Part shown: in pieces, positions 16,714-17,023 of the stretch | Layout: every line of letters starts with the position of its first letter | Position numbering within the stretch: the first letter of the stretch is position 1 | Source of the DNA: a virus | Lineage: Duplodnaviria > Heunggongvirae > Uroviricota > Caudoviricetes | Strand: one strand, 5' to 3' | Virus record (IMG/VR): IMGVR_UViG_2874951433_000008 | Length of the DNA stretch: 40,663 bases | The notes under the pieces: model-generated | The model's input: only the letters and a program-made list of their open reading frames with translations | What the model was told of the DNA's origin: nothing | Database searches by the model: none | Translations under genes and position numbers: made by a program

Positions 16714-16790
16714 GGCCCTTTAGCTCAGTTGGTCAGAGCGAGCGACTCATAATCGCCAAGTCGCTGGTTCAAGTCCAGCAAGGGCCACCA
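16714..16790 (+). tRNA. tRNA with anticodon CAT, ileX/ileZ-like (likely tRNA-Ile2 reading AUA after lysidine modification; could be Met)
   Basis: 77 nt with 7-bp acceptor stem GGCCCTT/AAGGGCC, D-arm TAGCTCAGTTGGTCAGAGC, anticodon loop CTCATAA, T-loop TTCAAGT and encoded CCA. Confidence 0.85.
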
Positions 16791-16791
16791 A

Positions 16792-16868
16792 CCACCACTA
16801 GCTCATCCGGATAGAGCATCAACCTTCTAAGTTGACGGTGCGAGGTTCGAGTCCTCGGTGGTGGGCCA
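16792..16868 (+). tRNA. tRNA-Arg (anticodon TCT, reads AGA)
   Basis: 77 nt with acceptor CCACCAC/GTGGTGG, anticodon stem TCAAC/GTTGA, loop CTTCTAA, T-arm CGAGGTTCGAGTCCTCG and CCA. Confidence 0.8.
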
Positions 16869-16870
16869 GC

Positions 16871-16945
16871 GCCGACTTAGCTCAGCAGGCAGAGCAACTG
16901 ACTTGTAATCAGTAGGTCACCAGTTCGATTCCGGTAGTCGCACCA
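16871..16945 (+). tRNA. tRNA-Thr-like (anticodon TGT) with non-canonical acceptor and T stems; possibly a pseudo-tRNA
   Basis: D-arm and anticodon arm (ACTGA-CTTGTAA-TCAGT) fold well, but the 3' acceptor strand AGTCGC is one base short of pairing with 5' GCCGACT, and the T-stem has an A-C mismatch. Confidence 0.45.
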
Positions 16946-16948
16946 TAT

Positions 16949-17023
16949 GCGGGCATCGTATAATGGCTATTACCTCAGCCTTCCAAGCTGATGATGCGGG
17001 TTCGATTCCCGCTGCCCGCTCCA
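16949..17023 (+). tRNA. tRNA-Gly (anticodon TCC, reads GGA)
   Basis: 75 nt with acceptor GCGGGCA/TGCCCGC, anticodon stem TCAGC/GCTGA, loop CTTCCAA, T-arm GCGGGTTCGATTCCCGC and CCA. Confidence 0.8.

Follow-up and report, generated by a model that had tools for sequence, protein, structure and literature searches.

Four tRNA genes lie in tandem at positions 16714-17023 of the 40,663-nt stretch of DNA analysed here (the window), in the anticodon order CAT, TCT, TGT and TCC, and are called by both ARAGORN and the Rfam tRNA model (Table 1). They are the only ones that ARAGORN finds across the window, exactly four in 40.6 kb. Their spacers are A, GC and TAT (1, 2 and 3 nt), as the 1 to 3 bp of the original prediction had it, and ARAGORN scoring, proposed there as a check, accepts four of four genes at the same coordinates. 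Rejection of more than one gene by the predictors, which had been named as speaking against the cluster, did not occur: the Rfam model (RF00005) also accepts all four, with its gathering score of 29 bits as the membership threshold. The third gene ends at 16945 when its CCA is included, ARAGORN giving 16944 because one base is missing. CCA is encoded in all four genes, and the acceptor stem is a continuous 7-bp helix in genes 1, 2 and 4, whereas in gene 3 its 3' strand has six bases. Prophage tRNA genes placed after Q are a known kind of lambdoid feature, already annotated in the RefSeq relatives; in the literature on ileZ/argN/argO and on ipaH islands carrying tRNA genes, no paper on exactly this four-tRNA cluster was found.

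Table 1. Features of the tRNA cluster and its flanks, in window coordinates
Feature	Position	Strand	Basis or remark
Putative Q-like late antiterminator gene	15970..16524	+	184 aa from ATG at 15970; longest ORF from 15850
Intrinsic-terminator-like hairpin and T-run (tR'-like), between Q and tRNAs	16603..16627	+	Conserved in relatives
Predicted sigma-70 promoter	16676..16704	+	TTGCAG 16676-16681, 17-nt spacer, TATTAT 16699-16704, 9 nt to tRNA
Gene 1, tRNA-Ile2 (anticodon CAT, ileX/ileZ type)	16714..16790	+	ARAGORN; Rfam 69.7 bits
Gene 2, tRNA-Arg (anticodon TCT), argN homologue	16792..16868	+	ARAGORN; Rfam 56.4 bits
Gene 3, tRNA-Thr (anticodon TGT), thrU copy with single-G deletion	16871..16945	+	ARAGORN; Rfam 55.9 bits; Infernal gap
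Gene 4, tRNA-Gly (anticodon TCC), identical to host glyT	16949..17023	+	ARAGORN; Rfam 64.9 bits
Class II holin gene, first 30 codons	17702..17791	+	Cut by IS3-family insertion 17792-19028
Lysozyme (RrrD-like) gene	19157..19644	+	Pfam Phage_lysozyme 151 bits

A probable tRNA operon in a disrupted lambdoid prophage

The cluster had been placed downstream of Q, and the upstream ORF is indeed Q-like, matching PHROG 753 ('anti-termination protein Q-like') with 265 bits and Pfam DUF1133 with 352 bits; against Phage_antitermQ it reaches 24.8 bits, slightly below the cut-off of 26. In relatives that carry this tRNA cluster, Q genes are annotated at this position, and the cluster stands between the Q-like gene and the lysis genes (holin, lysozyme) of a lambdoid prophage. 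In the interval between Q and the tRNAs, a CCCGC-loop-GCGGG hairpin followed by a T-run is kept in relatives although the loops differ; a simple terminator scan missed it, its stem being under 5 bp. The mosaic boundary with relatives having other Q types falls just past this hairpin, at about 16620, and hairpin and boundary fit what would be a Q-pR'-tR' module. At 16618, a G>T substitution found in the window and in S. flexneri reduces the terminator stem from five to four G-C pairs, and might permit more read-through from the Q region.

Between this hairpin and the first tRNA, a TTGNNN-17-TANNNT-9 nt register is fixed in 34 of 41 distinct upstream sequences. The promoter-bearing sequences form seven classes, between which the 17-nt spacers share less than 75% identity, and the information content reaches 1.86 bits per column in the -35 hexamer and 1.76 in the -10 hexamer, against 0.84 in the spacer and upstream flank. 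The conserved hexamers are the signature of a sigma-70 promoter, which is predicted here at the TTGCAG-17-TATTAT site that a consensus promoter scan also picks. Transcription of the tRNAs would most likely start from this promoter of their own, in the lysogen, and after induction Q-antiterminated read-through of the upstream terminator may add further transcription. Tandem tRNAs of E. coli are separated by RNase P; given spacers of 1-3 nt and encoded CCA ends, a cut by the enzyme at each 5' end would leave the tRNA before it with a trailer of 1-3 nt, which exonucleases would trim.

What would such an operon supply? The four tRNAs decode AUA, AGA, ACA and GGA, A-ending codons that had been supposed to be enriched in phage and cargo genes. 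Set against 40 housekeeping CDS of K-12, 52 CDS from the intact relative prophage do show the enrichment for all four (Fisher test), by 2-10 times: 11.8 versus 2.9 per 1000 codons for ATA (p 2e-19), 7.8 versus 0.8 for AGA (p 2e-19), 14.0 versus 5.2 for ACA (p 8e-11) and 13.5 versus 7.2 for GGA (p 5e-9). In ipaHb, AGA reaches 19.7 per 1000. The tandem genes may have the classical codon-supplementation role for the prophage genes and the ipaH cargo, an argument also made for the tRNA-Thr(UGU) 3' of Q in phage SfI, where ACA is likewise more frequent in the phage than in its host (PMC3636060), and for the rare codons AUA and AGA in Stx2 phages (PMC7946995).

The prophage that carries the cluster is 99.5-99.7% identical to, and collinear with, an intact prophage of E. 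coli FDAARGOS_944. The latter sits between ybhA and pgl, and reads int, cI/cro, QueH, hokD, NinB-like, YbcO, DUF1133 Q-like, the four tRNAs, holin, RrrD, Rz, terminase and a myovirus-type tail, with ipaHb at the end. Set against this intact relative, the window is scrambled, with the ipaH end inverted to its left edge, and at least six IS elements interrupt the ipaH-carrying lambdoid prophage, the IS elements in the window lying at about 2386-3649, 4576-5839, 7590-8920, 17792-19028, 19645-22656, 22877-24116, 26550-27880 and from 33649 onward. The insertion in the holin gene contains ORFs with HTH_Tnp_1 and rve domains; collinearity with the intact E. coli prophage L004 ends inside the holin gene of the latter, and the translation of the remnant (MYQMEKIST...) matches that holin. 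The 3' end of the lysozyme gene has been displaced by an IS66-family insertion (19645-22656). With holin, lysozyme 3' end and Rz disrupted, the lysis cassette is destroyed and the prophage cannot lyse its host and is decaying.

The 680-nt spacer from the tRNA-Gly gene to the holin gene (17024-17701) is where stx is found in Stx phages. No stx was found in it, its ORFs have no Pfam or PHROG match, and Rfam returns only sub-threshold matches of miRNA-type hairpins there. Two hairpins lie in the spacer, one long and imperfect (17135-17229), the other strong and terminator-like (17635-17661) and located 40 nt before the holin ATG; in other relatives the spacer is unrelated and about 290 nt long. 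A late promoter and terminator 3' of the tRNAs (a promoter-like site at 17402-17430 and the 17635-17661 hairpin) were considered and found unsupported, because both the mosaic boundary (about 16620) and the conserved pair of promoter and terminator lie 5' of the tRNAs.

Several other features were recorded in the same element. A QueH gene (epoxyqueuosine reductase, a tRNA modification enzyme) at 13439-14125 matches Pfam with 220 bits, and a hok/sok-type toxin-antitoxin locus follows at 14183-14508 (Rfam sok, 117 bits), a hokD homologue being annotated in the intact relative. On the minus strand, adjoining matches to C4 antisense RNA (75.7 bits) and to the isrK Hfq-binding RNA (61.5 bits) at 6898-7086 look like a P1/P7-type antirepressor control module of the prophage early region. 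The 3' part of an ipaH-type T3SS effector gene, with an NEL E3-ligase domain (253 bits), occupies 1-1587 on the plus strand and is truncated at the window edge; IS-mediated rearrangement has brought this fragment beside the prophage early region, while its counterpart ipaHb is right-end cargo in the intact relative.

Composition and relatives of the cluster

Genes 1, 2 and 4 had been described as folding canonically, which holds for genes 2 and 4 and was slightly generous for gene 1, where an A27.C43 pair is present, invariant in all relatives. The assumption that the CAT gene reads AUA stands, as it is an ileX/ileZ-like tRNA-Ile2. Its acceptor stem (GGCCCUU/AAGGGCC) has C4-G69 and C5-G68, which Ikeuchi and co-workers are said to have described in 2005 as TilS determinants of CAU tRNA-Ile2, and PGAP labels the gene tRNA-Ile in all annotated relatives. 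The CAU anticodon, these two pairs and the homology to ileZ place gene 1 in the tRNA-Ile2 class, its modification being predicted; after lysidine modification it would read AUA. A G>A change in its variable loop, at 16759, is private to the window and absent from S. flexneri SFBU1023 and the E. coli relatives.

Every pair of the tRNA-Arg gene is canonical, with A20, C35, U36 and G73 present; it aligns with argN of the Stx2a phage F723, and relatives show a compensatory change from A3-U70 to G3-C70. The tRNA-Gly gene is identical to E. coli K-12 glyT at 75 of 75 positions, and five relatives have a compensatory change from C6-G67 to U6-A67. These paired substitutions in the Arg and Gly acceptor stems show that the structure is under selection in intact clusters.

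The comparison with the tRNA clusters of Stx phages that had been suggested bears out a common origin for part of the cluster: genes 1 and 2 are homologous to the annotated ileZ-argN of Stx2-converting phages, with all 155 nt aligned at 82.8-84.5% identity. The cluster is, on this comparison, composite, genes 1-2 being of the ileZ-argN type and genes 3-4 near-exact copies of host thrU and glyT. Prophages in 828 of 5,426 E. coli genomes contain the Thr-Gly junction, and the IMG/VR loci fetched comprise 55 with the arrangement cat-ttt-tgt-tcc, 33 with cat-tct-tgt-tcc and 17 with tgt-tcc.

Three known systems resemble this arrangement. Stx2 phages of the 933W type carry ileZ-argN-argO at the same site, 3' of Q and 5' of the lysis genes, with homologous first two genes; they have argO where the window has the thrU-like and glyT-like pair, and stx after the tRNAs where the window has a non-coding spacer and then the holin gene, and the upstream Q of the window, of the DUF1133 class, is unlike theirs. 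The host operon thrU-tyrU-glyT-thrT of E. coli and Shigella has glyT, thrU and an A52.C62 pair in common with genes 3-4, whereas its tyrU, its thrT and its long spacers are absent from the prophage, in which Thr and Gly stand 3 nt apart behind a different promoter and the Thr copy of the window lacks G71. Finally, the S. flexneri phage SfI, like Sf6, ST64T and P21, has a tRNA-Thr(UGU) directly 3' of Q, a likeness to the cluster of this Shigella lambdoid prophage; its partner tRNA is Asn instead of Ile2, Arg and Gly, and SfI is an active phage whereas the prophage of the window is defective.

Two variants were observed among the relatives. In the commoner lineage (L001:3078-3154, L002:3078-3154, L016:895-971 and 55 IMG/VR loci), the anticodon loop of the second gene is CCUUUAA, not CUUCUAA, which puts a UUU ('Lys') anticodon on an Arg-type body, with C33 instead of the near-universal U33, U73 and an A51.C63 mismatch in the T-stem (44.4 bits). 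Annotation by PGAP is uneven, as tRNA-Lys in some genomes and not at all in others (52F4, 08-00022), and the gene is either a tRNA whose anticodon has switched or a pseudogene of wide distribution. In E. coli CFSAN029787 (L007:1351-1422), the fourth gene has the anticodon TAC ('Val') in place of TCC, together with A38G, and has lost one base from its 3' acceptor strand (48.5 bits); it is either damaged or anticodon-shifted.

The third gene

Is the third gene a decaying copy or an unusual functional tRNA, the two possibilities originally left side by side? The prediction relied on two apparent defects, of which one survives. The T-stem mismatch corresponds to a non-canonical A52.C62 pair in the Infernal alignment, and the same pair is present in functional E. 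coli K-12 thrU, which reads ...CACCAGTTCGATTCCGGTAGTCGGCACCA, and in every aligned relative. Since it is invariant in a functional gene and in the relatives, it is a native feature, and damage to the T-stem is ruled out. Gene 3 differs from K-12 thrU by two D-loop bases and one missing G, the A.C pair being shared.

The short acceptor strand is real, and appears as a one-column gap in the Infernal alignment. The missing G lies between 16939 and 16940, where AGTCGGC has become AGTCGC in the 3' acceptor strand. Alignments first with 9 and later with 15 relatives, prophages and phages, show AGTCGGC in all of them except those of the S. flexneri lineage, so that the short strand is, on this alignment evidence, a derived single-G deletion. 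A canonical cloverleaf, which would have argued against the defect, is not available: the best folds either bulge out a C or leave two terminal pairs open. With Rfam, the deleted allele reaches 55.9 bits in both the window and S. flexneri, whereas the intact prophage allele reaches 69.8 and K-12 thrU 73.8. Energies were compared for the cloverleaf instead of the MFE, because MFE folding of the unmodified RNA misses the cloverleaf even for intact thrU; they are -21.5 kcal/mol for the intact allele and for thrU, and -14.4 for the best deleted fold, with a 6-bp stem and a bulged C. Loss of the G lowers the score by 13.9 bits and the stability of the cloverleaf by about 7 kcal/mol, and it halves the acceptor pair probabilities, from about 1.0 in the intact allele to about 0.5.

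The identity elements of bacterial ThrRS include G1-C72 and C2-G71, plus G4-C69 (PMC9976931, Table 1). The single remaining G can pair with C2 or with C3 but not with both, so that a regular helix cannot contain G1-C72 and C2-G71 together; the acceptor identity pairs found in the intact relatives and in thrU are not retained in gene 3, while its TGT anticodon at 34-36 keeps the identity bases G35 and U36. The deleted tRNA-Thr would have a 6-bp acceptor stem with a bulged C and would lose either C2-G71 or C3-G70, a lesion that should impair its folding, its processing by RNase P and its charging by ThrRS. We infer that the function of gene 3 has been lost or strongly reduced, and the gene is probably a pseudogene or a hypomorph. 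The decaying copy is the alternative to be favoured, because the derived allele arose by loss of a single base, the prophage around it is riddled with IS elements, and host thrU decodes ACA; the functional alternative found no positive evidence. In PGAP annotation, a copy that carries this deletion is listed as tRNA-Thr and is not marked as a pseudogene.

Distribution of the deletion and competing readings

Among 140 fetched copies, the affected G-run has two Gs in 135, one in 4 and three in 1. Carriers of the deleted allele are S. flexneri SFBU1023, a 4.44-Mb chromosome under the label E. coli ECMA0423, two IMG/VR contigs (the intact allele being present in at least 120) and 1 of 5,426 complete E. 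coli genomes; none of the metagenome contigs scanned has it. SFBU1023 and ECMA0423 are identical over 2.2 kb, in which the window differs from both at seven sites; these include the window-private G>A at 16759 and a one-base deletion at 17436, the latter in a C-run of the spacer and likewise absent from SFBU1023 and the E. coli relatives. Since these two genomes share the missing G without the private variants of the window, the deletion at 16939 is an inherited allele and not a one-off error.

The remaining carriers of the deletion (L021, L022 and a second FDAARGOS_943 prophage) fall in the cat-ttt-tgt-tcc lineage, whose cluster is only 93% identical to that of the window, and in the FDAARGOS_943 carrier prophage the adjacent Q gene is frameshifted. 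The 3' half of the Thr gene and the whole Gly gene are identical in the two lineages, so that recombination can move the allele and recurrence is indistinguishable from transfer; recombination through these identical flanks, or a mutational hotspot, explains the second lineage more simply than selection. In E. coli UMNK88 (L016:974-1050), the G-run shortened in the window reads GGG (+1), and in E. coli VL40 (L006:1272-1347) a GT>TC change in the 3' anticodon strand of the tRNA-Thr gene leaves two mismatches. Lesions are common in the prophage tRNA genes of such clusters, because VL40 and UMNK88 are also damaged at tRNA-Thr.

Taken together, the locus is very likely an ordinary lambdoid tRNA operon in a decaying prophage of the S. 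flexneri lineage, whose third gene is a recently inactivated or hypomorphic thrU copy, a loss that is tolerated because chromosomal thrU supplies the same tRNA. The strongest competitor, itself unlikely, is that the deleted tRNA-Thr still decodes ACA, with C2 or C3 bulged and G1-C72, A73 and CCA held in register. The anticodon, D and T arms are untouched, the bulged cloverleaf still reaches -14.4 kcal/mol, and both the score, well above the Rfam threshold, and the ARAGORN call go in the same direction, as does the tRNA-Thr label that PGAP gives to the equally deleted copy. Against residual decoding stand the loss in bits and in folding energy, the place of C2-G71 among the ThrRS identity pairs, the rarity of the allele in the counts given above, and its restriction to prophages that are otherwise damaged, by IS elements here and by the frameshifted Q in FDAARGOS_943.

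By analogy with known toxins, the cluster, or its Thr-Gly pair, might instead serve mainly in counter-defence, replenishing or replacing host tRNAs that toxins attack during infection by way of the acceptor stem or anticodon, with the deleted allele as an escape variant or decoy. The toxSAS FaRel2 selects tRNA-Gly and tRNA-Thr via G1-C72, C2-G71, G4-C69 and Pu5-Py68 (PMC11245113), pairs that occur in both phage genes, and the frequency of the Thr-Gly pair in E. coli prophages and the occurrence of the same deletion in two cluster lineages would agree with such a role. It is nevertheless improbable: the intact phage copies are identical or nearly so to host thrU and glyT, and would be equally sensitive to a toxin, descent from the host thrU-tyrU-glyT operon explains the Thr-Gly adjacency, codon enrichment is strong for all four codons, and FaRel2 is of Firmicute origin.

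That the one-G deletion is itself a selected variant and not decay is very improbable, even with its presence in two lineages and the +1 variant in the same G-run; were it selected, the bulged tRNA-Thr could escape or decoy toxSAS, GNAT-type toxins or a ThrRS reading the first two acceptor pairs, and could also alter the processing of the neighbouring tRNA-Arg. An error of sequencing or assembly, with the real gene 3 intact, is just as hard to credit, since the second private one-base deletion of the window (17436) and the extra G of UMNK88, which could be an old-technology homopolymer error, are set against the deletion in SFBU1023 and ECMA0423 amid seven other differences from the window in 2.2 kb, its presence in two IMG/VR contigs and in another prophage lineage in E. 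coli FDAARGOS_943, and a two-base run that is not a typical error site.

On the reading of an inactivated or hypomorphic thrU copy, gene 3 is one more case of gene decay in the IS-riddled prophages of Shigella, and carries little weight beyond annotation. For annotation, tRNA predictors and PGAP call a thrU copy with a broken acceptor stem a normal tRNA-Thr, and an apparent T-stem mismatch can be native to a functional host gene. For the prophages themselves, the conserved promoter suggests that production of the tRNAs is not confined to lytic growth but extends to the lysogen, where they could aid the translation of AT-rich cargo such as ipaH.
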